Source: a virus. Taken from it: a DNA stretch of 64,000 nucleotides. The stretch lies in IMG/VR virus record IMGVR_UViG_3300044591_002420, positions 61,004 through 125,003 of that record; one strand, written 5' to 3'. Below, piece after piece: positions 3,461 to 47,964 of this stretch. Numbering within the stretch: the stretch's first letter is position 1; every line of letters starts with the position of its first letter. The translations under genes were made by a program, and so were the position numbers. Below the pieces are notes generated by a model. The model saw only the letters and a program-made list of their open reading frames with translations, was not told the DNA's origin and ran no database searches.

Positions 3461-4051
3461 ATGATTAATTTGGAAGATTATGTAGATCAGGAAGTGATTA
3501 TTATTAATAGTGAAAGACTATCACGATTTAACTATCATTCTATCTGCTATAAGGTAGGGAAAGTCACCAGAAAACATCATGATTCTACCAGTATTAATCA
3601 TTTTATTATCGGTAAAGACTCTTACACAAAAGAGGGTCGTCTTTTTGGGGGCGAGGGTGTGCAGAAGATTATATATATTCACCGCATTGTTCCGAAACTT
3701 ATTGGTTTGGCTCAGAAGGCACCCAATATTGAACTGGAGCAATTTGTGGGTAAGAAAGTTCTTGTTAAGTATAATGATAACACCGTTTATATTGGTAGAG
3801 TAGAAAAAAATGACAATGGAATTCTCTGCAGTTTTAATATCGGTAGTACTTCCTTCACTCATAAGGGATGTGTATATGGATGCTCTGATCCAAAATCTAT
3901 TCTAGAAATTTATGAAGAAGGCGCATATCAACTCTTCACTTCATCTATTCCCGAACCTGAAAATAAAAAGATGAATGAATTAGCTGAACAGATTAAGGAA
4001 CTCAATGAAACAGAACTAGTGGAATTGTTTAAGATTATTAAGGAACCTTGA
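3461..4051 (+). CDS. Hypothetical protein with internal two-fold repeat
   Basis: INLEDYVDQEV / IELEQFVGKKV duplicated domain. Confidence 0.7.
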   Translation: MINLEDYVDQEVIIINSERLSRFNYHSICYKVGKVTRKHHDSTSINHFIIGKDSYTKEGRLFGGEGVQKIIYIHRIVPKLIGLAQKAPNIELEQFVGKKVLVKYNDNTVYIGRVEKNDNGILCSFNIGSTSFTHKGCVYGCSDPKSILEIYEEGAYQLFTSSIPEPENKKMNELAEQIKELNETELVELFKIIKEP

Positions 4052-4599
4052 TGGATTTGTCTATTGATTCCTATGTTTCACCAGAAGTTCTTGCTGATCT
4101 CGCGGGGAACGATAGCCGTAAGATTCGGTGTGATGTGGCGTGTCATCCCAACACGCCATTGGAAGCCTTAGAACTTCTAGCTACTGATTGTGATCCTGAT
4201 GTTCGTTATTACGTAGCATTAAATGATAATACCCCATCGGGTACACTAGAACAATTAGCTAAAGATACAGATTTTGATGTTCGCTGTGAAGTAGCATGTC
4301 ATCTAAACACACCGACAGAAATCCTAGAACAACTAGCGACCGATAAAGTGTCTCCTGTTCGTTGGGGAGTAGCAAGAAATCCAAACACACCACCAAAAGC
4401 CCTAGAACAACTAGCGACCGATGAGAATCATAATGTTCGTTGTGGGGTGGCAGAAAATCCAAACACTCCACCAAAAGCCCTAGAGCTTCTAGCGACCGAT
4501 AAGAACTCTGATGTTCGTTATTGGGTAGCAAGAAATCCAAACACTCCACACTACATCAAAAAGTATCTTAAAATTCAAGAACATTTAGCTAGATTATGA
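4051..4599 (+). CDS. LRV repeat protein (6 repeats + C-cap)
   Basis: Repeat consensus and C-cap as above. Confidence 0.85.
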   Translation: MDLSIDSYVSPEVLADLAGNDSRKIRCDVACHPNTPLEALELLATDCDPDVRYYVALNDNTPSGTLEQLAKDTDFDVRCEVACHLNTPTEILEQLATDKVSPVRWGVARNPNTPPKALEQLATDENHNVRCGVAENPNTPPKALELLATDKNSDVRYWVARNPNTPHYIKKYLKIQEHLARL

Positions 4600-4997
4600 A
4601 CAAATTTAGAACATCAAAAAGCCGACGTACTTCACCAAAAGTCTTAGAAATTCTAGTGACCGATGAGGATCGTAATGTTCGTTCCAAAGTAGCACGAAAT
4701 CCAAACACACCACCAGAAGTCCTAGAACAACTGGCAACAGATCAGGATTATGTTGTTCGTTATGCTGTAGCAACACATCTAAACACTCCACCGAAAGTTC
4801 TAGAACAACTATCGACCGATGATATATTGGATGTTCGTTGGGATATTGCAGAAAATCCAAACACTCCACCAAAAGCTCTAGAACAACTAGCGAGCGATGA
4901 GGATTTTTCTGTTCGTTGTAGCGTAGCAGAAAATCCAAACACACCACACTTCATCAAGAAGTATCTTAAACTTCAAGAACATCTAAAAACATTATGA
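4596..4997 (+). CDS. LRV repeat protein (4 repeats + C-cap)
   Basis: Repeat consensus; ATGA-coupled to the upstream LRV gene. Confidence 0.85.
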   Translation: MNKFRTSKSRRTSPKVLEILVTDEDRNVRSKVARNPNTPPEVLEQLATDQDYVVRYAVATHLNTPPKVLEQLSTDDILDVRWDIAENPNTPPKALEQLASDEDFSVRCSVAENPNTPHFIKKYLKLQEHLKTL

Positions 4998-5479
4998 AAT
5001 ACTTAATGCTCTCGGGAATCCCAACTAGCGGAAAATCCACTTATGTAAATAAGCTCCGGGAAAATCCTTATTGGCAATCTGCAGTAATCTTATCTACCGA
5101 TAATTATATTACTAAGATAGCAGAAGAGTCCGATACCACTTATGATGATGTTTTTGAAGAACATATTACTGAAGCAACAAGACAGCTACACTTAGATTTA
5201 CAAGAAGCAATCAAACACAATAAACCAATTATTCATGATCAGACTAATCTAACAATCAAAACTAGAGCAAAAAAACTTAGCAATATTCCTGAACGTTATC
5301 AGAAGATTGTTGTTCATTTTGAAGTTCCGCTAGAAGAAGCACTGAGAAGAAATAAATGTCGTCCAGGAAAGTTTATTTCTGAAGATATTATCAAAAGAAT
5401 GTTTTATACTTTTGAACCACCGACTTCAGACGAAGGATTCAATCTAGTCTTGAGGTCAGATCAAGAACTACTAATTTGA
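4994..5479 (+). CDS. AAA_33-type P-loop kinase (polynucleotide kinase-like)
   Basis: Walker A GIPTSGKST, LSTD, IIHDQTNL, ALRRN lid. Confidence 0.8.
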   Translation: MKYLMLSGIPTSGKSTYVNKLRENPYWQSAVILSTDNYITKIAEESDTTYDDVFEEHITEATRQLHLDLQEAIKHNKPIIHDQTNLTIKTRAKKLSNIPERYQKIVVHFEVPLEEALRRNKCRPGKFISEDIIKRMFYTFEPPTSDEGFNLVLRSDQELLI

Positions 5480-5485
5480 AATTTT

Positions 5486-6949
5486 ATGGAAACCCGAGAA
5501 TCACGTTTAAATAAAATCAATAACATAAATTGTCCATATGCTGTTAAATTTAATCCTAGCAGTAGAGTGATTTATTTACAAGAAAACCATAAACACTTGG
5601 CACCCGGAGCCGAATGTCAAACAGAAGTTAGTATAGCGGGGAGAGTTATATCAAAAAGAGTTTTTGGTAAACTAGCCTTTTTTACATTATTGGACGAAAC
5701 AGGAACAATTCAAGCTTATATTGATAAAGGTTACCTAGACAGTTTTAATAATTTATATTTTTCTGAATTAACAACATTGGTTGATATCGGTGACTGGATT
5801 GGCCTTAGCGGACATCTTAAAGGAACCGAAAAAGGAGAATTATCAGTAAAGGTTAGAACTTGGCAGATGCTTTCTAAGGCACTTCAATCTTTACCTGATA
5901 AATGGCATGGATTAATTGACGTTGAAAAACGTTACAGACAAAGATATCTTGATTTAATTAGTAATCCGAAAAATAAAGAAATCTTTTATAAGAGATCTAA
6001 AATCATAAAGACTATCCGAAATTTTTTAGATGAACAGAATTTCTTAGAAGTAGAAACTCCTATTCTTCAAACTGAAACGGGTGGAGCAGATGCTAGACCC
6101 TTTCTGACGCATCATAACACTTTAGATATCCCTCTTAATTTGAGGATTGCGACGGAACTTCACCTGAAAATGATGATTGTTGGGGGATTTGAAAGAATTT
6201 ATGAAATTGGTAGAATTTTTAGAAATGAAGGAATAAGTACAAAACACAATCCAGAATTCACCTCTATTGAAATTTATAGTGCTTTTTCTGATTATTACGA
6301 CATGATGGATTTAGTACAAAAACTTATCTCTGAATGTTGTAAACAAGTATGTGATTCTGAGATTATTGAATATCAAGGCAACTTAATAGATTTTTCCTTT
6401 GGATTTCGTCGTGTTTCAATGCATGAAATTGTAGAGGAAAAAACAGGTTTAAATTTTAATAATTTCAATACTTGCCAAGAAGCTATTATTGAATTGAATA
6501 AAATGGGAATTGAACCTAGATCAAGTGATTCTTTGGGGCGACTTCTTAATGATGTTTTTGAGCAAAAAGTGGAAAATGAATTAATTCAACCGACAATTGT
6601 TATGGATTATCCGATAGAGATATCTCCTCTTGCCCGGCCTCATAGAAGCAAATCTGGTTTGGTTGAAAGATTTGAACTTTTTGTTGCAGGAAGAGAATTG
6701 GCGAATGCATTTAGTGAATTGATTGATCCGATAGACCAAAGAGCCAGATTTGAAGAACAACAACAAAGAAAAATAAATGGAGATTTAGAGGCACAAAATA
6801 TAAATGAATTATTCTTAGAAGCACTTGAGGTAGGAATGCCGCCAACTGGAGGACTAGGTATAGGAATCGATAGATTAGTTATGTTACTAACTGATAGTGC
6901 ATCAATTCGTGAAGTTATCGCTTTCCCTTTATTGAAACCCACCAATTGA
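5486..6949 (+). CDS. lysS: Lysyl-tRNA synthetase (class II)
   Basis: OB fold (FGKLAFFTL), [59 protein letters not shown]. Confidence 0.97.
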
Positions 6950-7163
6950 GGACAGATCAAGAACTGTCCATCTGACAAGCATTCCCACATCATAAAAGAG
7001 TAGACTTAAAACCCTATGTCCAAAAATAAATCAAATGGTGAGTTTTTATTAAACTATATGAAGACGAGAAGGTGAAAATTATTACTAAGGGAGAAAAAGG
7101 AAAAGATCCATCTAGTTTTGCTTCTACCACTGTTATACTTAAAGATACCAAAGATTCTGAAAA

Positions 7164-7955
7164 ATGAAAATTAAACTATTATCGGATCTACATCTAGATC
7201 AGGCGAAAGATCTTTCAATAATTGATTATTACACCGAAACGATTCTTGCGTCCGGTGATCTTCTCATATTGGCCGGTGATATTTTATCATCCAAACATCT
7301 TTCTTCTGATGGATTTCTGAAGAACATTTATATCTCTTTCTTCCGAGAATGCTCTAAACGGTACGATAAGATTATCTATGTAATGGGTAATCATGAGCAT
7401 TTTGGATATAATTGTAGTCGTACAAAAAATAAGATACAAGAATTTCTGCCGAATAACTTCTATCTGCTAGAGAATCAAACTCTTCAAATTGATAATTGGA
7501 ATTTCATTGGTTTTACCTTATGGACTGATTTCAATAGAGCAAATCCGTTAGATATGATAAATGCATCGTCTTATATGAATGATTATAAGACAATTAGAAT
7601 TACTGAGCGTTATCGTAAACTCAGACCCGAAGACTCACTCGCATTTCATCGCGGAAGTTTGCACTTTCTAAAAGAGCAACTCAATTTGATGAGCGATAAT
7701 GTTTTCGTGATCAGTCATCATACTCCGAGTTATCGTTCGGTTCCACCTAAATTTATCAGCAATCTTCATAATTCGGCTTATTGTACTTCACTAGATGAGC
7801 TTATTATGGATTCTCCACAGATTAAGTATTGGGCTCACGGTCATACACATTGGCAACAAGATTATTATATTGAACAATGTAGAGTATTATGTAATCCTCA
7901 TGGTTATTATGGAGAAACTACTGGATTCAATCCTAATTTTGAATTGGAAATCTAA
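7164..7955 (+). CDS. Calcineurin-like metallophosphoesterase
   Basis: SDLH, AGD, GNHE, HH, HGHTH and CNPHGY motifs. Confidence 0.92.
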   Translation: MKIKLLSDLHLDQAKDLSIIDYYTETILASGDLLILAGDILSSKHLSSDGFLKNIYISFFRECSKRYDKIIYVMGNHEHFGYNCSRTKNKIQEFLPNNFYLLENQTLQIDNWNFIGFTLWTDFNRANPLDMINASSYMNDYKTIRITERYRKLRPEDSLAFHRGSLHFLKEQLNLMSDNVFVISHHTPSYRSVPPKFISNLHNSAYCTSLDELIMDSPQIKYWAHGHTHWQQDYYIEQCRVLCNPHGYYGETTGFNPNFELEI

Positions 7956-8047
7956 TTAAAATGTCGTGCCACTCACACAACTGTCCACCGAAATCCACTT
8001 CTTCTTTCACCATCTGCTAAACTGAATTCACAAACAACGGAGTAATT

Positions 8048-8401
8048 ATGGGCTATCTCACGACCTTTACTGTCTATAATGATTTTGCACATGATATCAA
8101 AAAGGATCCCAAGCAATTTGGTGAAAAAGTTTATGAACATATCTGTGAAATGGAGACTGGCGATGTTAGTCTGGAAATCGGCAATTATTGCGCGACGGTT
8201 GCTATTGGTCAACATTCTCGTCATGCCGATGATCTCACAATCTATGTTCACATGGGAAATTGTGTGACCGAAGTGAATCCATATTCGCGCTCTTTTCAGG
8301 AATTAGTCAATAAAAATCCTCAGTTTGCAGATAAATTGATTAATTTTATTGAGGCAGAATTGGAGGAATTGAAAAAATTCAAACAAACAAAAAATAATTG
8401 A
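8048..8401 (+). CDS. Hypothetical protein
   Basis: Follows palindrome promoter 7966; GGAG RBS. Confidence 0.75.
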   Translation: MGYLTTFTVYNDFAHDIKKDPKQFGEKVYEHICEMETGDVSLEIGNYCATVAIGQHSRHADDLTIYVHMGNCVTEVNPYSRSFQELVNKNPQFADKLINFIEAELEELKKFKQTKNN

Positions 8402-8410
8402 GGTATTATC

Positions 8411-9259
8411 ATGGGCTGCTGGAACAAAACTTGTGGATTTTCGGGTCTTTCTATTATGGTGGGAGACCCGGTTTATGTCTTTGTTTTGAAGAAAAGCGAT
8501 TATTATGATCCATGCTCTTCAACTTCAGAATATACACCATTTCTTGCACCATTTGAGAGTTTTTATAATGATTATGGAAGTGGTGAAAATTCTAGAGGAG
8601 TCTGGCTACCATATATTATGGAAGCTCTTAAGAAGAAACTTATTGAAATGGAGGTCGGGGAAAATAAATGTCATGACATTGCAGTAAAACGCGATGATTT
8701 TGATGTGGATCTTTTCTTCTCGGCAATTAAAGAAGATCGGTTGTTTATTAATAAACATCAACCGAGTAATGCTATTCGTTTTACGATGATGCATAAAAGT
8801 ATCATTGATAAAATGTTAGAAGAATTTGAGTTCCGCCATTATGATTTTTTTAGGGAAATGGGGAAATGGGATTATAAATTTGCCGATATTATCACAAGAG
8901 TTGAAAATTATTGGAATAATATTAAATCATTTTATAACATCCATCAATTAATTGATTTTAATTATGATTCAATCATTGGGTCTTATATTTTCCATTATAT
9001 GTCAACCATCAATTTTATACCGATAAGAGAAGTTATCGGCGAATGCCTACAAAATAACACCGAAGATGAAGTTGCTATTAATCTCATTAAAGAATATCTC
9101 AAAGGATTACACGTTGAGATAATGATGAATCATCTTCGCAAAACTTGGCTACCTGGAGGATTTGAAGGTTCACAGGATTGTGAGTATGATGCATATAAAC
9201 TATTAGTCAATATTACACTAGAACATATTAAAGAAAAAGAAGAAGAATTGGATTATTAA
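8411..9259 (+). CDS. Hypothetical phage protein
   Basis: Long ORF with GAGG RBS. Confidence 0.8.
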   Translation: MGCWNKTCGFSGLSIMVGDPVYVFVLKKSDYYDPCSSTSEYTPFLAPFESFYNDYGSGENSRGVWLPYIMEALKKKLIEMEVGENKCHDIAVKRDDFDVDLFFSAIKEDRLFINKHQPSNAIRFTMMHKSIIDKMLEEFEFRHYDFFREMGKWDYKFADIITRVENYWNNIKSFYNIHQLIDFNYDSIIGSYIFHYMSTINFIPIREVIGECLQNNTEDEVAINLIKEYLKGLHVEIMMNHLRKTWLPGGFEGSQDCEYDAYKLLVNITLEHIKEKEEELDY

Positions 9260-9475
9260 ATGTCAAGAACACACCGAAGACAACCAGAAGAAAAGACTTG
9301 GTTTAAGCGCAATTATCGCCGACCGAGAACCTTTAATGAGAAAAAACAAATTGAAGATCTTATTCACGATGAAGATGTGAAACTAAGCAATCGTGAAAAA
9401 TCAAAACTCAATAATCTTCCAACCGCCTGGGATGACATCCGTAAAAGTTCCACTTATGAACAAGATTACCATTAA
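9260..9475 (+). CDS. Small basic hypothetical protein
   Basis: Packed ORF, RRPRT...LPTAWDD. Confidence 0.65.
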   Translation: MSRTHRRQPEEKTWFKRNYRRPRTFNEKKQIEDLIHDEDVKLSNREKSKLNNLPTAWDDIRKSSTYEQDYH

Positions 9476-10139
9476 GTATCCAAGAACATTACATCTTCCA
9501 TGGTCGGAAGGAATAACCTCAGATGATAAGAAAATAAAAACATTGAATAATTTTCATGGTAGAAGTGTCATTATAACAGAAAAGATGGATGGTGAAAACA
9601 CTACAATGTATAGGAATAATATACATGCGCGTTCATTAGACAGTCGCGGAGGAGAAGACCGCGCATGGATAAAGAATTTTTGGTCAACTTTTTCATATAA
9701 AATTCCAGAAAACTATAGAATTTGTGGTGAAAATCTTTGGGCTAAACATAGCATTTATTATCAACATTTGAAGTCTTATTTTTACGGATTTAGTGTCTGG
9801 AATGGAAATCTCTGTCTTAGTTGGGAAGAGACTAAACTGTTCTTTGAAGATCTAGGAATTTATTCTGTTCCGATTCTTTATGAGGGAATCTGGAATGAAG
9901 ATCTGATTCGTAATCTACAGAATACTATTAATTTACAAGAAGTTGAAGGGTATGTTGTAAGATTAGCAGATGAATTCTCTTGTGAAAATTTTGATTGCAG
10001 TGTTGCTAAATTTGTAAGAACCAATCATGTCCAAACGAATAATCATTGGCGCAGTGATAATTTCATACCAAATCGGCTATCAAATGATATTTCTCAAGAA
10101 GAATCTCTCATTACAACAATAGGAGAAAACGCAAAATGA
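9456..10139 (+). CDS. ATP-dependent RNA ligase (Rnl2-like nucleotidyltransferase)
   Basis: KYPRTLHLPWS, motif I TEKMDGEN, GENL, FYGF, EGYVVR, VAKFVR; ATG 9456 preferred. Confidence 0.88.
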   Translation: MNKITIKYPRTLHLPWSEGITSDDKKIKTLNNFHGRSVIITEKMDGENTTMYRNNIHARSLDSRGGEDRAWIKNFWSTFSYKIPENYRICGENLWAKHSIYYQHLKSYFYGFSVWNGNLCLSWEETKLFFEDLGIYSVPILYEGIWNEDLIRNLQNTINLQEVEGYVVRLADEFSCENFDCSVAKFVRTNHVQTNNHWRSDNFIPNRLSNDISQEESLITTIGENAK

Positions 10140-10492
10140 AGATTGAAGACATGGTTCAAGATATTGTCAGGGAAGGAATTCCAGTGACAATTAAATATAA
10201 TAAAGAGACAGATGAAATTCGTTATTATATTCCGGGATTTTATAAGTCCGATGGATCAGTTTATTTGGTAGAGGAAGAGGGTTGTAGAATTTTCTGCTAT
10301 CAAAGATATGGCGAAAAAACAGAATTGTACGATAATAACTTTATGGACAGTCTTGTTGGTGTGAATTATTATTGGTGGTCGGTAACAAAAGAAAGAAATC
10401 CAGGTTCCACAATTCTTCCAGATGATTATTGGAAAGAACATCTAATAAAATCTGGACGTATTAAAGTTGTAACTAAAACTGAATACGTGTGA
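10136..10492 (+). CDS. Hypothetical protein
   Basis: AGGAG RBS, ATGA overlap. Confidence 0.75.
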   Translation: MKIEDMVQDIVREGIPVTIKYNKETDEIRYYIPGFYKSDGSVYLVEEEGCRIFCYQRYGEKTELYDNNFMDSLVGVNYYWWSVTKERNPGSTILPDDYWKEHLIKSGRIKVVTKTEYV

Positions 10493-11019
10493 ATAAAGAA
10501 CTTATTGATCATCTAAAATCAAGACATCTAAATTTAGAACTTCATCGTCCAATTCTTGATGAAGAACTTTCAATAGCAACCTTTCTTTTTTATAATCTAT
10601 CAGAACAACTTGTTGGTTATCAACAATACAATCCCAATGGTGATAAAAAGATCTTCAACTCAAAATTAGGTGGTCGTTATTACACTTATCGTAAACAACC
10701 AACAATTGCTATTTGGGGCCTAGAATCATATTACATTTCAGATGGACCAATTTTTATCACTGAGGGTATTTTTGACGCAGCAAGATTTACTGAAAGAAAT
10801 CAGACTGCATTTGCTGTTTGTAGTAATGATCCACCGAAGGATTATAAAAATTGGTTTGATACATTACCGAGAAAAGTTATTGCGATTTGTGATAATGATC
10901 CTGCCGGTGAAGAACTGGCTAAGTTTGGAGATTATTATGAAATTGTTCCCGACAACAAAGATGTAGGAGAATCTTCTGAAGAATATGTTCGTTATCTTAT
11001 TGAGAAATACACAAAATGA
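10489..11019 (+). CDS. Toprim-domain (DnaG primase-like) protein
   Basis: IFITEGIFDA and ICDNDPAG Toprim motifs, KDVGE. Confidence 0.8.
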   Translation: MNKELIDHLKSRHLNLELHRPILDEELSIATFLFYNLSEQLVGYQQYNPNGDKKIFNSKLGGRYYTYRKQPTIAIWGLESYYISDGPIFITEGIFDAARFTERNQTAFAVCSNDPPKDYKNWFDTLPRKVIAICDNDPAGEELAKFGDYYEIVPDNKDVGESSEEYVRYLIEKYTK

Positions 11020-12791
11020 CTATTATTAAAAACTATCGCACTCATAATTGCGGTCAATTGACATCTAAAAATGTTAATGAGATCGTGACACTTTCTGGAT
11101 GGATTGATCGTAGACGCGATCATGGTAAATTGATTTTTATTGATCTTCGTGATAGCAGCGGAGTGATTCAATTAGTTTTATCTAATGAAAATTCTGAACG
11201 TCTGAGAGTTGAGACTGTTATTCTGATTACAGGTAATGTTATTTCCAGACCGATTGAGAATATCAATAATGAAATTTCAACAGGAGAGATAGAAGTAGAA
11301 GTGAGCGATTTAATTATTCTAAACGAGGTTAAACACGTTCTACCATTTTCTGTTTCAAGAAATGAAAGAACTGTTGTGAATGAAGAGTTACGTTTACAGA
11401 ATCGTTATCTTGATCTTAGAAGTAAACGCATGAGTGATAATATACGAATGCGCCATAAAGTAACAAGATCCATTCGTAATTTCTTAGAATCGGAAAATTT
11501 TATTGAAGTTGAAACACCTATTCTTAATCGTTCAACTCCAGAAGGTGCAAGAGAATACTTGGTACCAAGTAGAATCTATAAAGGAGAATGGTTCTCTCTT
11601 TCTCAATCACCACAACTGTTTAAACAGATGCTGATGGTGGGTGGAATTGAAAGATATTATCAAATTGCACGATGCTTCAGAGATGAATCTTTAAGAGTTG
11701 ATCGACAACCAGAATTTACACAAATTGATTTAGAGATGAGCTTCATGTCTCAAGATGAAATTCTTTCTCTTAGTGAGAGAATGATTTCTACTATCTGGAA
11801 AGAAGCAAAAGGAGAAGAATTGTCCATTCCTTTTTCTAGAATGAGTTGGAAAGAATCAATGGAGAGATATGGAACAGATCGGCCAGATATTCGCTATGGA
11901 TTAGAATTATCCGATGTTTCAAAGATCTTTTCTGATTGTGGTTTTAAGGTATTTTCCAATGTGATTAAAAGTGGTGGAGTTGTTAAATGTATTACCATCA
12001 ATTCTAACAACGAATCAATTACAAAATCTCGTCTTAAAATTGGAGGAGATTTAAATGATTTGGCGATAAATTTGGGTTCCGGTGGACTCGCATATATCAA
12101 AATAAATGACGACCATGAATTTGATTGTATCAATGCCATTAAAGACAATTTAACAGAATTCCAAAAAACTGAACTGTTAGAAATAACAGAAGCTACATCT
12201 GGAAGCTTGATTATATTTTGCGCTGGTACTTCTGATGTCGTCAATAAAACACTAGGCAAAATTCGTCAAGTTCTCGCAGAGGAATTGAATCTCATTACGA
12301 ATATGAATTCCTTTTTGTGGATTGTTGATTTTCCTATGTTTGAATATAATCCAATTGAGAATAAATTGTGTTCACTCCATCATCCTTTTTGTGCTCCAAA
12401 TGAAGACGATTTAGGAACCGAACCCGATTTATGGTCTGAGCGAATTGTTCACTGCCGAGCACAATCTTATGATTTGGTTCTCAATGGATACGAATTGGGT
12501 GGTGGATCATTACGAATTCATGATTCCGAATTACAGAGAAAAGTTTTACAGATTCTCGGTCTTTCTGAAGAAAAGATTGATGATCAATTTGGATTTCTTT
12601 TAAATGCATTGGATTCTGGCGCTCCTCCTCATGGCGGATTGGCTTTTGGTTTAGATAGAATTGTTATGCTTCTTTTGAATGAAGAATCCATTCGTGATGT
12701 TATTGCCTTTCCGAAAAGCTCACAAACTAGATGTCTACTAACGGGTGCTCCTTCAACTGTTTCAGATAATCAACTTCTTGAATTTGAATAG
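11016..12791 (+). CDS. aspS: Aspartyl-tRNA synthetase (probably non-discriminating Asp/Asn type)
   Basis: RTHNCG, RRDHGKLIFIDLRD, TPEGARE, QSPQLFKQ, CFRDE..RQPEFTQ, GAD insert, HHPF, ELGGGSLRI, GAPPHGGLAFGLDR. Confidence 0.97.
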   Translation: MTIIKNYRTHNCGQLTSKNVNEIVTLSGWIDRRRDHGKLIFIDLRDSSGVIQLVLSNENSERLRVETVILITGNVISRPIENINNEISTGEIEVEVSDLIILNEVKHVLPFSVSRNERTVVNEELRLQNRYLDLRSKRMSDNIRMRHKVTRSIRNFLESENFIEVETPILNRSTPEGAREYLVPSRIYKGEWFSLSQSPQLFKQMLMVGGIERYYQIARCFRDESLRVDRQPEFTQIDLEMSFMSQDEILSLSERMISTIWKEAKGEELSIPFSRMSWKESMERYGTDRPDIRYGLELSDVSKIFSDCGFKVFSNVIKSGGVVKCITINSNNESITKSRLKIGGDLNDLAINLGSGGLAYIKINDDHEFDCINAIKDNLTEFQKTELLEITEATSGSLIIFCAGTSDVVNKTLGKIRQVLAEELNLITNMNSFLWIVDFPMFEYNPIENKLCSLHHPFCAPNEDDLGTEPDLWSERIVHCRAQSYDLVLNGYELGGGSLRIHDSELQRKVLQILGLSEEKIDDQFGFLLNALDSGAPPHGGLAFGLDRIVMLLLNEESIRDVIAFPKSSQTRCLLTGAPSTVSDNQLLEFE

Positions 12792-12956
12792 AGTTTATGG
12801 ATAACAAAAAAGGACAGTCTAAAATCCGTCCACCTCCGGCTCCACACTCTCCGATCTATGCTATGTTGATTAGGTCGGTGAGAGATCAATAATCCACCAA
12901 CCATCCACAACCACGTTCACTCCTGTTAGTATTCACACTGTCGTACTGAACCAACC

Positions 12957-14207
12957 ATGACCAAAGAAGCAACTTTTGAGACTGCCGATTTCTTTATTGT
13001 TCCCGAAGAAGTTTCTTACTTCTCTACTCCAAACTTTACCTCATACTATAATAACATGCGTACAGATTATGAGGCAAAAGAACATACTTTCAAAAAAGCA
13101 GTCATTGCTGGAGCTGTTATTCTGGCTGCTTCAAAGGCACAACGTCTTCATACAGTTTGGCCCGATATTCCTAATGACTATTTTCGGAATTATTGGCCTC
13201 TTCTTGAACTTCCGATTGAGCTTGAACTACTTAATGATGAGCTGGTCGCCAACTGGTTTCGGGAGAACATGAGCTATCGTACATTTTTCAATATGATTTA
13301 TCGTCATGCTCGTCGTTATGGAAAGGCTCTTTATCAAGAAGATGAGATTCCAAATAAATTGACCGAGATTAACTTTGATGATATTCTTAAATCTGGTACA
13401 GGTACAGTAGAAAGTATTTTGGATCAGTTGGCACTCAAAGAAGAAGCGATTTATGATAATTATATTAATGGAAATATGGAAGATTCTGATTCAAATCAAG
13501 AATCTTTCCGTGCAATCAGCATTCTTTATCATATCGCGGGACATCCTAACACTTCCTCTGAGACATTGGCGCGGTTGGCATCCAATGACGATTATCCATC
13601 ATATGTGTATCGGCAGGTTGTATTGAATCCGAACACACCAGAAGATATTCGGCTCAGTCTTATTATTGAACGGGGTGTTGAAGATGTGAATTCTCAGCTC
13701 AAAGATACACTTAGTCAGCTCCAAAAAATGCTAAAAGCTGGCGATACCATTGTTCCAGAAACTCGTAAAGATGATGGAACAATTAAGAAGTGGCGTTGGC
13801 GTCTTATTGATTTTCACGATAACATCAGCTATCTTTATCTGATGCGAGAGATTAAAAATGTTGAGTTTACCAACAATACCATCAAAAATCAGTATCAAGA
13901 AGGCTCCTGGAATGTATATCAACCCAAAGATAGCGTGGCTCTAGCAATGTGGGCACAAAAAGTCAAGAATTGTATTCGTTCACGAGAAGATAATGTTCAC
14001 AGTGGGGATTCAGAAATCGTATTCATTGAGCGTAATGGTGTTCCCGCTTATACTGTTGAAGTTCGTCCGGGAGCACCTAAACGTCGCAATCTCTCAGAAC
14101 TTAATATCAAAGAGATTCAGGCATTTGGTGCTCGCACCGGCACCACTCGTGACAATCAAGGAGAGATCTTGAATATGATTAAGCGTGCGATGGAAGCAAA
14201 TGTATGA
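12957..14207 (+). CDS. PcfJ-like protein with inserted LRV repeats
   Basis: HPNTSSETLARLASND..VVLNPNTP insert; C-terminal WAQKVKNCIRS...YTVEV resembles PcfJ domains. Confidence 0.55.
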   Translation: MTKEATFETADFFIVPEEVSYFSTPNFTSYYNNMRTDYEAKEHTFKKAVIAGAVILAASKAQRLHTVWPDIPNDYFRNYWPLLELPIELELLNDELVANWFRENMSYRTFFNMIYRHARRYGKALYQEDEIPNKLTEINFDDILKSGTGTVESILDQLALKEEAIYDNYINGNMEDSDSNQESFRAISILYHIAGHPNTSSETLARLASNDDYPSYVYRQVVLNPNTPEDIRLSLIIERGVEDVNSQLKDTLSQLQKMLKAGDTIVPETRKDDGTIKKWRWRLIDFHDNISYLYLMREIKNVEFTNNTIKNQYQEGSWNVYQPKDSVALAMWAQKVKNCIRSREDNVHSGDSEIVFIERNGVPAYTVEVRPGAPKRRNLSELNIKEIQAFGARTGTTRDNQGEILNMIKRAMEANV

Positions 14208-14407
14208 ACTACAAGCTACTGCTTTATTTTCTACTCTTTGAGATTGGAGAGTTCACCGCATTTTGGCTGATCGCCGATTACATTCCACTAGCATTTACAC
14301 AACTACAGATCTTTATTGGTCTTATTGTTATTGATGTGGTAGTAACCGAAATCGTATTTCCTGGTGCATTTGTGACTCTTTACCGGAACATCTTTAACAA
14401 ACACTAA
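14204..14407 (+). CDS. Small two-TM membrane protein
   Basis: Two hydrophobic helices. Confidence 0.7.
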   Translation: MNYKLLLYFLLFEIGEFTAFWLIADYIPLAFTQLQIFIGLIVIDVVVTEIVFPGAFVTLYRNIFNKH

Positions 14408-37630: not shown

Positions 37631-38368
37631 ATGTCTTCTCTCACTCCTGAACAACTGTCCGACCTTCTTGACGATACCTTTGACGGTTATTGTGAACATA
37701 TTCTTGATAATGTAGATCAAAATACGGTCGTTGGAGTTAAGATTACCACAGAGGTAACACATTCCGATGGTTCCATTACGGAATTTGTTGATATTCACAC
37801 TCCAACAGAAGAATCATCTAGTGTCAACAAGAAACCCGCTCAACAAGAAAATAGACCCTATCGTAGCAACTGTTTTCCTGACGACAAATAATAACCACTA
37901 ACCCACCCACATCTCTTTTCTTCCAATGACAAAATCAAACAACGTCAAGCTAACTCTCACGGTTCAACTTGAAGTGGATCTTGGAAAAAATGGTCTCACA
38001 ATTGAAGATTTTGTTTCTGAATTGAAAAGTGGTTATCAATCATTCCATCCACAAGGAGCTTATATCATTTCCGAGAAAATTGTCCGACACGATGTTAATG
38101 GTACCCATCCAGATTTTGACCAATGAGCACCACCAATCAGGCAATTTTTGAGAATCATCTGAAGAATGCTTATGAGGATCTCTTTGCTAACAATCCAGAG
38201 TATTCTTATGCTGCTAGCAGAACAACTCCTGTAGAACTCGCTCATAAAATGACAGAATCTCTTGTAACTGGGCAAGGAAATAAAGACGGTGATGGTATCA
38301 AAAGAGCATGTAAAGCTGTAGGAATTAAACACACTTATAAAGCGATCAAAGAATATCTTAACCAATAA
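37631..38368 (+). other. Three hypothetical genes (37631, 37926, 38123)
   Basis: Co-directional ORFs after palindrome 37548. Confidence 0.7.
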
Positions 38369-38390
38369 CAATACAATTCCAATAACATTT

Positions 38391-38563
38391 GCTGAGGTAT
38401 AACAATACTTCAGCTTTTGTTATATTCTTATTTTTTGTCTTAAAAATAGAATAGGCTTCCCGTATCTGTATTCTACTGATGGCGTTGGTATCTGTCAAGC
38501 ATTCTTCCATAAGCACTTCTGATCGGTTGAGAGGTTGACTTAAGCGGTTCCAGGGTCTATATT
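38391..38563. promoter_or_regulatory. Cassette A: hairpin + reverse sigma70 promoter + central operator + forward sigma70 promoter
   Basis: Minus TTGACA(38493-98)-N17-TAGAAT(38470-75), ACGG at 38463; plus TTGACT(38535)-N17-TATATT(38558). Confidence 0.85.
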
Positions 38564-38590
38564 ATGGAAGTCACTCAGACAAGCCTTCTC

Positions 38591-38974
38591 ATGTCCCGGA
38601 ATCCCGCTCCCGAACTGAAGCACGACATTGTAGTTCATGAGGGTTTCGTAACCCTATCTAATAACAATGATGGTTTCTATACACAATACTTCAATAATCG
38701 GGAAGAGGTTGAGCAATTCATCGCTGAACTTCGTGAGGCAATGGATAACATTTGGCCGGATGGTGTTGATCCTCAAAAACTACAGGAAGAATGTTATCAA
38801 AAACGAGAGGAAGAGCGTCAAGAATACTTGCGCAATAATCCTCCTCGGCCACTAACACCAGAAGATATTGAACGTAATAAAAGGTTAGTGGAACTTCTCA
38901 ATAAACTGGCTAATGATGATTCCTATTATATTCGTTCTCATGTTGCGGAAAATCCCGGATTCATCACACCATAA
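38591..38974 (+). CDS. Hypothetical protein with C-terminal LRV fragment
   Basis: LANDDSYYIRSHVAENP at the C-terminus. Confidence 0.7.
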   Translation: MSRNPAPELKHDIVVHEGFVTLSNNNDGFYTQYFNNREEVEQFIAELREAMDNIWPDGVDPQKLQEECYQKREEERQEYLRNNPPRPLTPEDIERNKRLVELLNKLANDDSYYIRSHVAENPGFITP

Positions 38975-39286
38975 GAACCTATCCACAACATAATGCGATA
39001 ACAACCCACTCTACCACTACCTTTTCAGCGACATTATTGTGCTCAGTGAGTCCTTTATCCTTGAGCACATTTTTGTAGCTGAGATCCAAGATGATATAAA
39101 TAAATCTAAAAAACCTTTTATCGGGAATTTCGGTCTGAAGGTGCTACGGGTCATTCCGTCAAATAAGATCACCGATAATTTCATTGTTATAATAAATGTT
39201 ATGTGTCAGTCCATAAGCTGTCCACCGATACTCTCATGTTCCCATAATCTGCTGTATTGTTAAGAAGTCTCCAGAGAATGTTTCTC

Positions 39287-39673
39287 ATGGCTCACTATTT
39301 CAGTCTTGCTGAAAATCCTCACACAGATCTTAGAACTCTCGTACGTCTGGCTCATGATGGTGATAATCCTCTTACGGATGCGGAATGTGATAAAATCATC
39401 GCTGAGAATAACGAGCGTGCTCGGCAGCTAGAAGAGGCCAGGCTTAATAGGCCCATTCTTCCACAAACATGGACAGATAGATATGATATTATTGAGAAAT
39501 CTATTCCCTACGGTGGAACTGTTGGAAATCCTGTAACAGAGGGTATCCAAAAGGTCGTCACACTTAGGATTATTGACGAAGTTGATTATTCTGTTCATGT
39601 TAATTTCTACAACAGAAAAGAACTGAATAAATTTATTTCAGAATTGCTACAAGTCTCAGATCATCTTGATTGA
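39287..39673 (+). CDS. Hypothetical protein with N-terminal LRV fragment
   Basis: LAENPHTDLRTLVRLAHD at the N-terminus. Confidence 0.7.
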   Translation: MAHYFSLAENPHTDLRTLVRLAHDGDNPLTDAECDKIIAENNERARQLEEARLNRPILPQTWTDRYDIIEKSIPYGGTVGNPVTEGIQKVVTLRIIDEVDYSVHVNFYNRKELNKFISELLQVSDHLD

Positions 39674-39701
39674 ATACGAGACAATAACAATTCAATTTAC
39701 G

Positions 39702-39728
39702 AGAGGTGGAGTTTTCTACCTCTTTTTT
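39702..39728 (+). terminator. Intrinsic terminator
   Basis: AGAGGTGGA-loop-TCTACCTCT followed by a T run. Confidence 0.75.
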
Positions 39729-39830
39729 ATATGAACTATAGATCGTGTGCCAGTCCATAAGCTGTCCACCATTATCCCCACCCGACGAGATTTCTGGTTA
39801 TTGTTAAGAAGTCTTCAGAGAATGTTTCTC

Positions 39831-40265
39831 ATGGCCCCCAACATCAGCAGTTTTCATCCATTGTGGTTGATCCATCTTTTTAGTTGGCGAGATATTGCAG
39901 CGCTTATTGGCAGTAGAGCTATCTATGGACGGAATGCTAGCCATGAAAGTGATTTTGATTATATTTTTCCTGAGGGAACAAAGAATGCTGCAATCAATGT
40001 TCTCAATAAAAATAACGTTCAATTTACAACTAACAATTTCGGAACTATTAAAATTGTTGTTGAAGTTCGTGATTATGCTATACCTTTTTGTTTTAACATT
40101 ATTTTTCTTGACGAATGTAATTTCGCGGCATGGTCTAAAGCGACTAAGTTGTTAAAAGTTATTCTTAACGAGGTAAATATCAATAAAACGGATAGACTGA
40201 AAATGTTCAATTCTCTGGTGCAAGAATTTGGTGGAGCTGCAATCACCAATACACCAAGTTTCTGA
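39831..40265 (+). CDS. Minimal nucleotidyltransferase (pol-beta superfamily)-like protein
   Basis: LIGSRA...ESDFDYI = GS..DxD motif. Confidence 0.6.
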   Translation: MAPNISSFHPLWLIHLFSWRDIAALIGSRAIYGRNASHESDFDYIFPEGTKNAAINVLNKNNVQFTTNNFGTIKIVVEVRDYAIPFCFNIIFLDECNFAAWSKATKLLKVILNEVNINKTDRLKMFNSLVQEFGGAAITNTPSF

Positions 40266-40287
40266 TCCTGATCCTGATAACAATAAT

Positions 40288-40457
40288 AACCCTAGAGTAA
40301 TTCTGGGGGTTTTTATTGTTTATATTTTGATAAGAAAAATAGAATAGGTTTCCCGTATCTGTATTCTACTCATGATCCAACAGTTTGTCAAGGTCCGGAA
40401 TGATAAAATGTTCTTATCGGTTGTGGCCTTGACAAATTCCTAAAAGAGGTTTATTGT
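40288..40457. promoter_or_regulatory. Cassette B (divergent sigma70 promoters, ACGG RNA start 40356)
   Basis: Minus TTGACA(40386-91)-N17-TAGAAT(40363-68); plus TTGACA(40429)-N17-TATTGT(40452); terminator 40288-40314. Confidence 0.85.
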
Positions 40458-40482
40458 ATGAAAGACGAATCTCACAGGATCC

Positions 40483-40782
40483 ATGATCACCCGTCAGCAG
40501 TATCTTTCTTCCCCATCTTCTCTTCATCACGAGTATTTTCTTCAATTTTCTAATCCTGTTATTCGTGGTATTCTTAAGAGATCAATTTTTGATTCTGATA
40601 AAAAGTTGAAAGAAAGCACTGATCCACATTTTAATGATATTCCACTGAAATGGTGGGATGATATTGCAAATTTTATTGCCCCGTATATCAATAACACCAA
40701 ACTCGTTGAGTTGGGTGAAATCAATTCACTAAGCACAAGAGTTTGTATTTTGAAAGCTATTGCCCAAGAAATGATCAAATAG
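40483..40782 (+). CDS. Hypothetical early protein
   Basis: Follows cassette B; DPHFNDIPLKWWD. Confidence 0.75.
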   Translation: MITRQQYLSSPSSLHHEYFLQFSNPVIRGILKRSIFDSDKKLKESTDPHFNDIPLKWWDDIANFIAPYINNTKLVELGEINSLSTRVCILKAIAQEMIK

Positions 40783-40801
40783 GATTGTTTTCAAATGAGT
40801 A

Positions 40802-40977
40802 ATGAGTCAGGTATTCTTATACTTGGCTCATTTTTATATTCTTATTTTTAAGAAGAAAAATAGAGTAGTATGTCCGTAAGATTATTCTAGTCGTTATATT
40901 CAGAAAATGGTCTGCTCCCGTGCCAGTTTGAGAAGTGTCACAACCTATGAGAACGGCGATCAAAATTCCACTATTAT
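40802..40977. promoter_or_regulatory. Cassette C (palindrome-driven divergent promoters, ACGG RNA start 40877)
   Basis: Palindrome 40920-40941 with minus TAGAAT (40884-89) and plus TATTAT (40972-77), each exactly 30 nt away. Confidence 0.75.
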
Positions 40978-41001
40978 GGTATGAACCACGGAATTTCTCA
41001 C

Positions 41002-41247
41002 ATGAGTATCCCTGATCCTTCTCAGGCAACCGCCATTCTTAACCGTTGCGACTGCCAAACTGTCGCCGCTGCTACTCTCCCGGTTTGGAATAAGTTTCTG
41101 AATGACCTTAGTCTCCCCGCAGACCTTTATGATAATGTTGAGGATATGATTAACATTCTTGAATATATCAAAGATTGGCAACCTTCCGATGCTGACATAA
41201 TTAAAAACAATTCTTGTGGTACTGCATGGCATGATGGATGCCTTTGA
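41002..41247 (+). CDS. Hypothetical protein
   Basis: ATG after cassette C. Confidence 0.6.
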   Translation: MSIPDPSQATAILNRCDCQTVAAATLPVWNKFLNDLSLPADLYDNVEDMINILEYIKDWQPSDADIIKNNSCGTAWHDGCL

Positions 41248-41384
41248 TTGATTATACATGAAATAATCAGTATAGTATAAAGATCGGAAATAGTATGCTC
41301 CTGTGCCAGTTTGAGAAGTGTCCACTGACTCACTGAAATGGTGTGTTTATCCGCCATAATACAAAGGTAATCGCAATTCTTCTC

Positions 41385-41834
41385 ATGCGACTTGAAACCG
41401 TCAATCGTCATCTGGGAGAGATTGAGTGTATTATTCAATCGGTTTATAGTGCCGCGAAGTGTCATCTCCTCTCATCAGAACAGATCAACGCTGAAATTTA
41501 TCGGAGAGTTCTTGATACAAATAAGTATAAAAATCTTCCCATGTGGGCAAAAGATAAGGTGTATGATATTATCAAACATTTCAGGAAAAAAACAATAGAT
41601 ATGTATGTTCGGTTGTTTTATATTGGTCTGGATGATAGAAAGATTCCCACTCACAAAGCATGGGATCTTTTCACCGAAGAAGAGAAAGAATTGTGCCGAA
41701 CACCTAATGGCTTAGTAATCCATCATATTTGGATGAGAGAAACAATCCAAAGAAACGATGATGGAAGTGAGATTATCACTCTCAATCCTACTGATAAAGT
41801 ATATTGGTGTTCTAAGATTAAAGAAACAGAATAA
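41385..41834 (+). CDS. Hypothetical protein
   Basis: ATG after palindrome 41303 and a TTCTC leader. Confidence 0.7.
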   Translation: MRLETVNRHLGEIECIIQSVYSAAKCHLLSSEQINAEIYRRVLDTNKYKNLPMWAKDKVYDIIKHFRKKTIDMYVRLFYIGLDDRKIPTHKAWDLFTEEEKELCRTPNGLVIHHIWMRETIQRNDDGSEIITLNPTDKVYWCSKIKETE

Positions 41835-41841
41835 TAACATC

Positions 41842-42004
41842 AGCCAGGTTTAATCCCTGGCTATAAACTTATATTTTCTCTTAAAAATAGAATAGGTTTC
41901 CCGTATCTGTATTCTACTCATGATCCAACATCCTGTCAAGCATTCTTCCATAAGCATTCCTGATCGGTTAAGGGCTTGACGTGGGCATCAATCCGGTCCA
42001 TACT
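41842..42004. promoter_or_regulatory. Cassette D (ACGG RNA start 41904)
   Basis: Minus TTGACA(41934-39)-N17-TAGAAT(41911-16); plus TTGACG(41976)-N17-CATACT(41999). Confidence 0.85.
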
Positions 42005-42190
42005 ATGGAAGTCAACCGGAACCGAACCGATGGCCCAAACATTCCGCCCTGTCTGCGACATTCAGAGCAGAAATCCGTTCATGGTAGCGGTAGTCAAAGA
42101 TGATAAGAATCTTCTCATCGACAGTGAGCCTTCAGTGGTTCCGATGTCGTGGATTGCCGCTGAGTACGCTAAACAATATGGAAAAGTGAA

Positions 42191-42775
42191 ATGAGCAATA
42201 ATAAATTCCGAATCGTTAAGTATAACGGTTCCTTTGAAGAATGTGAAGTTCTTCAAGTCTGTCACTCGTATGAGGAAGCAGACCAAAGATTCCAATACTG
42301 GGATGATAAATATACGAACGATTATATTGAGAACGATTATATTGAGATTCTCACTCCAGAAGACTGGAGAAATTTTCAATTAGGTTCTAATCCCTTAGGT
42401 TCTAATCCATCATTGATGTTCCAAACAAGTTACACGATCACCGGCCGTCTTCAACGCCAATTAGCGGCAGTTGCTACTCCAATTGTCGAGGATTGGTTCA
42501 CAGATGTATTGATTCACGATACTGCCGCTGTCAAAGATATGGAAATTGGCGAAGTTCGTTTATGGGCACTTCGCAAAACGGGTACATGGTTGTGTACTCT
42601 GAAGCAAGATATTTCTGAGTATAACGAATTTTCTGGACTTATCACCAAAATTATGAAAAGACCCGATGAATATAATGACGGATATTATCATCTTTTTCTA
42701 TTGCATAAGATCTCAGCAGATAAGCTGAAGATCACACCGACAACTTATGAAGAAATGTCCTATGTGAATGTGTGA
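42191..42775 (+). CDS. Hypothetical protein
   Basis: Long co-directional ORF. Confidence 0.7.
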   Translation: MSNNKFRIVKYNGSFEECEVLQVCHSYEEADQRFQYWDDKYTNDYIENDYIEILTPEDWRNFQLGSNPLGSNPSLMFQTSYTITGRLQRQLAAVATPIVEDWFTDVLIHDTAAVKDMEIGEVRLWALRKTGTWLCTLKQDISEYNEFSGLITKIMKRPDEYNDGYYHLFLLHKISADKLKITPTTYEEMSYVNV

Positions 42776-42785
42776 GATAATAAAT

Positions 42786-42953
42786 GCCCCGGAGAAATCT
42801 GGGGTTTTTTATTGTTTATATTTTGATAAGAAAAATAGAATAGGATCTCCGTATCTGTATTCTAGTCATATTTTTATCGGTTGTCAAGGTCTGAACTGAT
42901 AAAATGTTCTTATCGGTTAAAGGGTTGACAGATTCCTAAAAGCGGTTTATTGT
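42786..42953. promoter_or_regulatory. Cassette E (ACGG RNA start 42852)
   Basis: Minus TTGACA(42882-87)-N17-TAGAAT(42859-64); plus TTGACA(42925)-N17-TATTGT(42948); terminator 42786-42810. Confidence 0.85.
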
Positions 42954-42983
42954 ATGAGAGTCAATCCATCAAGGCTCTCTCTC

Positions 42984-43523: not shown

Positions 43524-43550
43524 ATTGAATAACAAATACAAACACATTTG

Positions 43551-43723: not shown

Positions 43724-43753
43724 ATAGAAGTCAACCAAACCGGAAGGTTTCCG

Positions 43754-44815: not shown

Positions 44816-44840
44816 ATGAGAGTCCCGATGGATTCCTTCC

Positions 44841-45152: not shown

Positions 45153-45174
45153 TTATTCTACATTCTCTACATCG

Positions 45175-47097: not shown

Positions 47098-47122
47098 ATC
47101 ATACGAACAATTAGCTATTCTT

Positions 47123-47963: not shown

Positions 47964-47964
47964 A

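Follow-up and report, generated by a model that had tools for sequence, protein, structure and literature searches.

A 64,000-nucleotide stretch of viral DNA (the window; positions 61,004 to 125,003 of IMG/VR record IMGVR_UViG_3300044591_002420) carries, at its positions 4994-12791, genes for a P-loop kinase, a lysyl-tRNA synthetase (LysRS), a calcineurin-like metallophosphoesterase, a small ligase that probably acts on RNA, and an aspartyl-tRNA synthetase (AspRS). The reading favoured here, with a probability of roughly 55%, is that an RNA-repair kit lies beside two captured synthetases, as neighbours but not as one conserved machine. Pfam, PHROG and NCBIfam matches confirm that all five genes are intact where an initial annotation, made from the sequence alone, had placed them. 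That annotation went further and proposed a single tRNA repair-and-recharge cluster, a claim that the comparison with related phages does not bear out.

The phage and its relatives

The record is 125,003 bases long and 51% complete according to CheckV, and the window is its final part. T4-type baseplate genes occupy window positions 54615-63999, and the gp6 homologue among them shares 64% identity with its counterparts in Synechococcus phages B3 (MN695334) and B23 (MN695335), two 244-kb Kyanoviridae that are the nearest named genomes. Among the 636 phage records matched by this gp6 homologue, the name is Synechococcus in 374, Cyanophage in 61 and Prochlorococcus in 24, and the stretch is present in lake-water metagenomes of many studies. 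Taken together, the baseplate genes, the gp6 matches and the lake-water occurrence identify the record as about half of a T4-like freshwater cyanophage genome of about 245 kb.

A further relative, IMG/VR record G128, comprises 247,932 bases and is rated 100% complete; its gp6 is 58% identical to that of the window phage, and 59 of 259 open reading frames (ORFs) are in common. IMG/VR classes G128 as a 'provirus' despite a GC content of 33% and a baseplate gene shared with the window phage. Its host-like AspRS may be what triggered this label.

Conservation of the five genes

Across phages, the five genes are not a conserved repair-and-recharge unit. In 80 ligase loci from IMG/VR (44-64% identity, flanks of up to 10 kb on each side, tblastn at 1e-5), LysRS and AspRS are found in none, the kinase in two and the phosphoesterase in ten, and none of 80 phosphoesterase loci contains any of the other four genes. 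Co-occurrence across phages, whose absence the initial annotation had named in advance as one possible refutation, is no better in whole genomes: PF00152 synthetases appear in only 2 of 48 ligase-bearing records (each at least 46 kb and picked from the 80 ligase loci), or in 2 of the 14 with a completeness of 90% or more. The corresponding counts are 12 of 48 and 6 of 14 for the phosphoesterase family, and 23 of 48 and 11 of 14 for AAA_33 kinases.

The nearest relatives show the families dispersed or partly absent. B3 has its phosphoesterase at 56 kb, its kinase at 71 kb and a block matching the genes from o282 to o176 (Table 1) at 101-103 kb; hidden Markov model (HMM) searches of this genome detect neither a class IIb synthetase nor anything that strongly matches the small PF09414 ligase. 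In B23, searched by tblastn only, there is no LysRS, AspRS or small-ligase match. The complete G128 genome has no LysRS and carries the phosphoesterase at 18.8 kb, the kinase at 90.4 kb, AspRS on the opposite strand at 183.4-185.1 kb and the small ligase at 244.3 kb. Distances from its AspRS are thus 59 kb to the small ligase and 93 kb to the kinase, and the four families span more than 200 kb.

Identity and origin of the synthetases

Both synthetases are full-length enzymes with conserved catalytic features. LysRS matches NF001756 at 655.4 bits (cut-off 468) and TIGR00499 at 609.9 bits (cut-off 427.6), with residues 2-486 covered, and contains an N-terminal OB fold (PF01336) and a tRNA-synt_2 core (PF00152). 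It keeps 171 of the 182 columns that are invariant in 41 cyanobacterial LysRS sequences and carries FRNEG at residue 245 and GIDR at residue 460, which we take to be class II motifs 2 and 3. AspRS matches NF001750 at 768.8 bits (cut-off 443) and TIGR00459 at 733.2 bits (cut-off 373.85), and its PF01336, PF02938 (GAD) and PF00152 domains are all matched. It keeps 172 of the 193 columns invariant in 43 cyanobacterial references, and FRDE, QSPQ and GLDR are present.

Sequence comparison places the closest cellular relatives in the picocyanobacteria. The best matches are Synechococcus and Prochlorococcus proteins, at 61-65% identity for LysRS and 58-61% for AspRS. The host sample consisted of the GTDB family of a Synechococcaceae single-cell genome together with its phylum. 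Within the family, 58 of 61 genomes have a LysRS-level match, with identities of 60-65% in 57 of them and 68% over one partial match, and the other 3 gave weak cross-matches only; identity to other cyanobacteria is 56-60%. For AspRS, 39 of 41 family genomes were matched, at 53-61% over the full length and 64% over one partial match, and other cyanobacteria reach 54-58%.

Quick maximum-likelihood trees (LG+G4, SH-aLRT support) were built from 69 LysRS rows, including the best 30 of 58 family matches, and from 63 AspRS rows with 30 family rows. All 30 family rows together form the sister group of LysRS, at a support of 96, and the LysRS end branch is 0.75 against a median of 0.15. AspRS, together with P0122, an 81% identical AspRS on a 10.2-kb contig, is likewise sister to all 30 family rows with a support of 99 and a stem of 0.74. 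These phylogenies, which the initial annotation had suggested as a check, indicate that both synthetases derive from the picocyanobacterial host lineage; their position on long branches beside the host family points to an old capture from that lineage or to fast evolution since. The G128 AspRS groups with the window AspRS at a support of 93, in a join flagged as long branches meeting, and a single origin is for that reason not claimed.

The anticodon-binding loop of AspRS (residues 36-39) also departs from the host form. It reads DHGKL in the window phage and in its close kin P0122 and P0241-P0243, and DHGGV in 43 of 43 cyanobacterial references. The G128 loop is DHGGF, and the window phage thus differs from the references at two host-invariant loop positions.

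Phage relatives of the two enzymes are few. No named phage record is closer than 52% for LysRS or 46% for AspRS, and most such records are unannotated host-like contigs. The aspS gene of Microcystis phage MaAM05 (MW495066, 221934-235658) was considered as a comparator; it is surrounded by sasA, sigE, hppA, coaE and rnhC, and it was dropped because this neighbourhood looks like a bacterial chromosome, so the MaAM05 synthetase calls for caution. Single-protein IMG/VR scans returned no relatives of LysRS and one distant relative of AspRS, at 38%. A metagenome scan with an AspRS alignment, in which generic motifs were picked, returned ordinary bacterial AspRS only, at up to 54%, and missed the P0122 contig. 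Term searches of the literature, as far as its text was accessible, turned up no synthetases in T4-like (Kyanoviridae-type) cyanophages.

Several lines of evidence mark both synthetases as genuine phage genes. Among 5.8 billion protein clusters, LysRS has no match above 65% identity, and AspRS has none above 61% except phage-like kin. GC at third codon positions (GC3) is 0.21 in LysRS and 0.23 in AspRS, beside 0.24 in gp6 and 0.235 in the kinase. Logan contigs of sequencing run X2, which comes from a different sample and study, bridge two stretches of the window with 0 differences, from ligase into AspRS (9706-11411) and from AspRS into the gene that follows (11484-14300), and one contig of run X1, which may be the source sample, spans 4969-7169, covering the kinase, LysRS and the beginning of the phosphoesterase. 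Over the synthetases and the genes around them word depth is even, at 4.4-8.7 in most bins, and six contigs, the largest with 244,489 bases, encode proteins that share 90% or more identity with AspRS. Misassembly of host DNA into the contig, raised in the initial annotation as a possible refutation, finds no support in the phage-like GC3, the junctions bridged in an independent run or the even depth.

Probable RNA-repair enzymes

The best solved relatives of the kinase are enzymes that act on tRNA. Its sequence matches in the PDB are PSTK (4e-7), Pnkp1 (2e-4) and T4 Pnk (3e-3). Aligned with T4 Pnk (1ltq, at an E-value of 3e-3 only), it conserves a GxxxxGKST P-loop, an Asp and an RRNKCR segment corresponding to the R-N-x-x-R lid; the T4 Pnk active site presumably consists of the P-loop Lys/Ser, a general-base Asp, Arg38 and Arg126. 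All 161 residues form the kinase domain, and the protein has no fused C-terminal HAD-type 3'-phosphatase domain. A search at E<=1e-8 yielded no longer, fused relatives of the kinase, a result that counts as weak evidence, and a single-protein IMG/VR scan with the kinase returned no relatives. The best phage relatives are those of B23 and B3, at 46% identity.

The neighbours of this kinase in related phages are informative. In B3, gp129 belongs to the T4 Rnl1 family of ligases, with a PF09511 match of 114.6 bits and a T4_Rnl1_C domain, and lies one 57-residue gene upstream of the kinase orthologue gp131 (B3 69789-71675). Both are annotated as hypothetical, and domain content and position predict that this cultured cyanophage has in them a tRNA-repair pair of the T4 type that escaped annotation. 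In G128, which has three PF09414-type ligase genes, a 514-residue ligase combines PF09414 with a PHA02142 OB fold and ends 0.8 kb 5' of the kinase. Neither the gp129-type ligase (by tblastn) nor the 514-residue ligase is present in the 125,003-base record, and the Rnl1 profile PF09511 has no match there, though the control of that search also gave no match. One conserved kinase is thus paired with three different RNA ligase families across three related jumbo cyanophages, a case of non-orthologous displacement. Because the same kinase lies beside RNA ligases in B3 and G128, it is read as the 5'-end healing enzyme of RNA repair, and this good associative evidence makes it a likely 5'-OH RNA kinase.

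The ligase is a compact member of the Rnl2 family. It scores 110.1 bits against PF09414 (cut-off 27), and its longest ORF, 9393-10139, starts at a GTG at 9393; alignment with the homologues begins only at the ATG at 9456, which makes the GTG an improbable start. Residues K43, D45, G46, N48, G91, E92, N93, E164, G165, K185 and R188 are invariant in 29 homologues, giving the motifs KMDGEN, GEN, EG and K-x-V-R. A structural model with a predicted local distance difference test (pLDDT) score of 86, in which residues 212-227 are disordered, finds its best folds in the nucleotidyltransferase domains of NgrRnl, P. pacificus Rnl and T4 Rnl2 (TMq 0.47-0.52); a PDB sequence search with the ligase found nothing. 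The protein ends 40 residues past motif V, and T4 Rnl2 aligns over its nucleotidyltransferase domain only. Nick sealing by T4 Rnl2 needs its C-terminal domain.

Relatives of the ligase number 158 in IMG/VR. The 31 phage records that carry it include 0 cyanophages and are nearly all jumbo phages; the nearest named relatives are in RsoM2USA (54%) and XacN1 (50%), with others in SCTP-2, Atu_ph07 and CcrSC. The record also encodes an ATP-dependent DNA-ligase-like protein of 293 residues (record 57724-58605, 3 kb upstream of the window; PF14743 at 30.6 bits, PF01068 weak), which is 59% identical to B3 gp142, annotated as 'DNA ligase'. The small ligase is probably for RNA, since its modelled fold matches RNA-ligase nucleotidyltransferases and a separate DNA-ligase-like gene already covers DNA sealing.

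The phosphoesterase model has a pLDDT of 92, with PptH, Dbr1, Mre11 and Rv0805 as the nearest folds (TMq 0.5-0.66), and the metal-site motifs are invariant in 36 homologues; a PDB sequence search found nothing. The protein is 47.5% identical to homologues in B3 and B23, where it is unlinked to the kinase. By its position, and by that alone, it may be the 3'-end healing enzyme of the kit. The tRNA-repair part of the initial annotation therefore fares unevenly: it is reasonable for the kinase and the ligase, it is unproven for the phosphoesterase, and its coupling to the synthetases is unsupported.

Proposed supply of Lys-, Asp- and Asn-tRNA

The host family appears to make Asn-tRNA indirectly. 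Asparaginyl-tRNA synthetase (AsnRS, TIGR00457) is above cut-off in 0 of 41 host-family genomes versus 6 of 14 control genomes. In the indirect pathway, AspRS charges tRNA-Asn and GatCAB then converts the product; with no detectable AsnRS in the host family, a host-type AspRS must also charge tRNA-Asn for GatCAB. Its host-type ancestry suggests that the phage AspRS is probably non-discriminating, accepting both tRNA-Asp and tRNA-Asn.

Amino acid composition points to the same residues. The ORFs of the phage (33,631 residues) were compared with ORFs from host-family loci at a GC content of at least 55% (40,675 residues), and Asn is 3.8 times and Lys 3.2 times as frequent in the phage, the two largest ratios of the 20, with Tyr at 3.1 and Ile at 2.1. 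Since Asn and Lys are the most over-demanded residues, LysRS and an AspRS that probably serves Asn would cover exactly these two. The second function offered by the initial annotation, support for Lys, Asn and Asp codons of an AT-rich phage in a GC-richer host, accordingly fits both the composition and the AsnRS distribution.

The initial annotation had suggested looking elsewhere in the genome for tRNA genes of these specificities. No gene for tRNA-Lys, tRNA-Asp or tRNA-Asn was found in the 125,003-base record or in the complete G128 genome. The record encodes Arg-TCT, Met-CAT and Pro-TGG tRNAs only (record 37980-55617, upstream of the window), and G128 encodes two Met, Leu-TAA, Arg-TCT and Gly-TCC tRNAs. 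The Arg-TCT and Pro-TGG tRNAs recognise codons that end in A, and GC-rich hosts presumably use such codons rarely.

Proposed function and alternative explanations

In the favoured reading, the cluster lies in a shuffled accessory-gene region of a T4-like cyanophage of about 245 kb that infects freshwater picocyanobacteria, and it places two functions that protect translation next to each other. The Pnk-like kinase would phosphorylate 5'-OH ends, the phosphoesterase may remove 2',3'-cyclic phosphates or 3'-phosphates, and the small Rnl2-family adenylyltransferase would seal 3'-OH/5'-PO4 ends. LysRS would charge host tRNA-Lys, and AspRS would charge host tRNA-Asp and probably also tRNA-Asn, whose product host GatCAB would then convert. 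The two synthetases, fully phage-like in base composition, would boost or protect the availability of Lys-, Asp- and Asn-tRNA for a proteome unusually rich in Asn and Lys.

Several observations weigh against this reading. The five genes lie on one strand within 7.8 kb, with 4-nucleotide overlaps along ligase, o118, o176 and AspRS, and this tight, overlapping arrangement could reflect selection for co-expression. The record also covers only 51% of the genome. On the repair side, the modelled phosphoesterase fold is generic, the distance between its gene and the kinase gene is 15 kb in B3 and B23 and 70 kb in G128, and its family, with 190 phage records, is much more frequent than the ligase, with 31. 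The kinase has Ile at the position aligned with R38 of T4 Pnk, and the ligase is without accessory domains of the sort on which the substrate specificity of Rnl1, Rnl2, Rnl3 and Rnl5 depends. On the supply side, B3 is equally rich in Lys (6.8%) and Asn (6.0%) without a class IIb synthetase, so composition alone does not demand these genes. Tyr (3.1-fold) and Ile (2.1-fold) are enriched as well, and the synthetase search covered PF00152 only; Lys is not enriched relative to host loci below 40% GC (6.65 versus 6.53). Finally, the host composition sample is small and biased, with about 73,000 residues from ORFs around the synthetase genes themselves.

One alternative, which appears unlikely, joins all five genes into an integrated unit, in which the repair genes mend tRNA-Lys and tRNA-Asp/Asn broken by anticodon nucleases of the host and the phage LysRS and AspRS recharge exactly these tRNAs, perhaps in hypomodified form. 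PrrC cuts tRNA-Lys and colicin E5 targets Asp/Asn tRNAs, so both class IIb synthetases have cognate tRNAs that are nuclease targets. The tight clustering on one strand agrees with such a unit, as do the tRNA substrates of the best solved relatives of the kinase (PSTK, Pnkp1 and T4 Pnk), the B3 pairing of the kinase with an Rnl1 ligase that carries the T4 Rnl1 C-terminal domain, and the change of the AspRS anticodon-binding loop from DHGG(V) to DHGKL. It is contradicted by the absence of synthetases from all 80 ligase and all 80 phosphoesterase loci and from all but 2 of the 48 whole records, by B3, which repairs without synthetases, and by G128, which has no LysRS and keeps AspRS far from both ligase and kinase. 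No tRNA-Lys, -Asp or -Asn gene occurs in either record, and no host anticodon nuclease has been identified. The two synthetases are better explained by Lys/Asp/Asn supply, or by insurance against host shut-off, than by coupling to repair.

Such insurance is a comparably unlikely account of the synthetases when taken by itself, that is, with composition irrelevant and the enzymes maintaining tRNA charging when the host LysRS or AspRS is inhibited, phosphorylated or degraded, whether through toxins of abortive infection or in the course of host takeover. HipA-type kinases target synthetases, including LysS. An identity of 58-65% to any host enzyme, with catalytic columns kept, is what would be expected of replacements that escape an inhibitor, and the choice of these two synthetases is left unexplained. 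No such host toxin was identified in this analysis, and B3 and B23 manage without LysRS and AspRS. The part of Al-Shayeb et al. (2020; PMC7162821) available to us does propose that huge-phage synthetases help redirect translation.

A dedicated salvage line for class IIb tRNAs (Lys, Asp, Asn) is a little less probable again. In it, the PSTK/Pnk-like kinase, the phosphoesterase and the minimal ligase would mend anticodon-loop breaks caused by a picocyanobacterial nuclease, the two synthetases, with the lineage-specific DHGG-to-DHGKL change in AspRS, would have diverged to accept mended, undermodified tRNAs on which host enzymes do poorly, and the assembly of the genes within 8 kb would be a recent move in the direction of an operon. 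Neutral cargo is improbable too: on this account the genes are insertions at a recombination hot spot with no shared cluster benefit and little from the synthetases. The patchy synteny with B3 and G128, with its shuffled order, and the varying presence and absence of genes among relatives would suit it, but the synthetases remain intact at branch lengths of about 0.75 with 89-94% of invariant columns kept, and AspRS relatives (81% and at least 90% identical) occur on other contigs, one of 244,489 bases, which argues for purifying selection. An assembly artefact is the least credible explanation by far, since the host-lineage ancestry of the synthetases and the 'provirus' label of G128 are outweighed by host identities of at most 65% (LysRS) and 61% (AspRS), phage-like GC3, even word depth, the X2 contigs across both AspRS junctions, the X1 contig over 4969-7169 and the recurrence of the AspRS cluster on 6 contigs.

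Relation to known systems

Both component systems, the repair kit and the phage synthetases, are of known kinds. The window resembles the T4 pair of Pnk and Rnl1, which counters PrrC, in combining a Pnk-type kinase domain with an ATP-dependent RNA ligase in a T4-like phage. Unlike T4 Pnk, the window kinase is a stand-alone protein of 161 residues without the HAD phosphatase domain, and unlike T4 Rnl1, the window ligase is a bare PF09414 nucleotidyltransferase. The three chemistries that bacterial Pnkp, with Hen1, unites in one polypeptide (kinase, calcineurin-type phosphoesterase and ligase) are here found within 5 kb. They are, however, encoded by separate genes, and the TIGR04075 profile matches just the kinase part, at 21.2 bits where the cut-off is 750; the ligase belongs to another family, and the phosphoesterase fold has no special likeness to the Pnkp phosphatase.

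Jumbo phages provide a closer parallel. According to the accessible portion of Iyer, Anantharaman, Krishnan, Burroughs and Aravind (2021; PMC7824862), jumbo-phage Rnl1 and Rnl2 ligases act with polynucleotide kinases, and a few phages add calcineurin-like phosphatases. The window shares with those systems, as described there, an Rnl2-family ligase, a Pnk-like kinase and a calcineurin-like phosphoesterase, and differs in its cyanobacterial host and in the two synthetases among the repair genes. RlaP, 2H and HAD partners did not turn up, and no search was aimed at them.

Synthetases are known from huge phages and giant viruses; to our knowledge, their benefit has rarely been tied to measurable demand. 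As in the huge phages of PMC7162821, so far as its available text describes them, the window enzymes are host-related yet distinct and belong to a genome above 200 kb. The differences lie in the T4-like (Kyanoviridae-like) cyanophage background, in the presence of two class IIb enzymes and in the lack of cognate tRNAs in the 125,003-base record. B3 instead carries an Rnl1 ligase and a CCA-adding enzyme.

The combination of two synthetases with an over-representation of Asn and Lys offers a concrete, testable link from compositional mismatch to synthetase capture, in a phage group that is well studied and ecologically important. The kinase-ligase pairings also help to annotate relatives, such as the B3 proteins gp129 and gp131 that are still labelled hypothetical. 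If confirmed, the integrated unit would be the first example of a repair pathway with dedicated recharging enzymes attached to it.

Other features of the span and the window

The span 4994-12791 holds ten head-to-tail ORFs, five of which (the ORFs of 117 and 71 residues, o282, o118 and o176) are absent from the initial annotation (Table 1).

Table 1. Genes of the span 4994-12791 and further features located in the window
Feature	Window position	Strand	Matches and remarks
Pnk/PSTK-like P-loop kinase, stand-alone, 161 aa	4994-5479	+	AAA_33 9e-18; KTI12 8e-10
Class II (IIb) LysRS, full length, 487 aa	5486-6949	+	NF001756; TIGR00499
Calcineurin-like metallophosphoesterase, 263 aa	7164-7955	+	PF00149 2.4e-13; phrog_1649 1e-54
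ORF of 117 aa	8048-8401	+	phrog_7147 1e-7; no Pfam family above cut-off
o282, 282 aa	8411-9259	+	phrog_5960 4.5e-11; no Pfam family
ORF of 71 aa	9260-9475	+	Weak phrog_12793, 2.8e-4; 20-nt overlap with ligase start
Rnl2-family (PF09414) nucleotidyltransferase, probable RNA ligase, stand-alone, 227 aa	9456-10139	+	PF09414 110 bits
o118, 118 aa	10136-10492	+	No Pfam or PHROG family; start overlaps ligase stop by 4 nt
o176, Toprim-like, 176 aa	10489-11019	+	phrog_849 'DNA primase' 1.7e-30, positions 147-330 of 435
Bacterial-type AspRS with GAD insertion, 591 aa	11016-12791	+	NF001750; TIGR00459
phrog_219 baseplate gene	54615-56513		PHROG match
phrog_2885 giant protein	continues past window end		PHROG match

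The block from o282 to o176 is shared with B3 at 67% DNA identity. Within it, o282 is 34% identical to B3 gp216 (B3 101479-102384) and has matches in the protein Atlas only below 0.9, and o176 is 60.6% identical to B3 gp218 (B3 102700-103209). Toprim Pfam matches to o176 are weak, at 12-14 bits and under the cut-off, and the protein could be a nuclease or primase fragment. An off-frame tblastn match suggests an o176 homologue about 1 kb 3' of the kinase in G128.

GC skew rises to between +0.14 and +0.15 over window positions 8001-12000, the part from ligase to AspRS, with flanks near 0 and GC unchanged at 0.335. Predicted promoters (51 versus 46.3) and terminators (6 versus 6.8) are not above the numbers in shuffled sequence. 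Immediately 5' of the kinase (window 4048-4997) lies an adjacent pair of LRV/HEAT-like (PF01816) proteins with a repeated NPNTP motif, and a 416-residue ORF 3' of AspRS (window 12957-14207) has weak LRV matches. Logan word depth reaches 124 in the bin 4344-4687, about 30 in the next bin and about 8 elsewhere, with numerous skip and go-back joints. This high depth, together with the joints at the LRV region, points to a repeat family of the phage or of its community.

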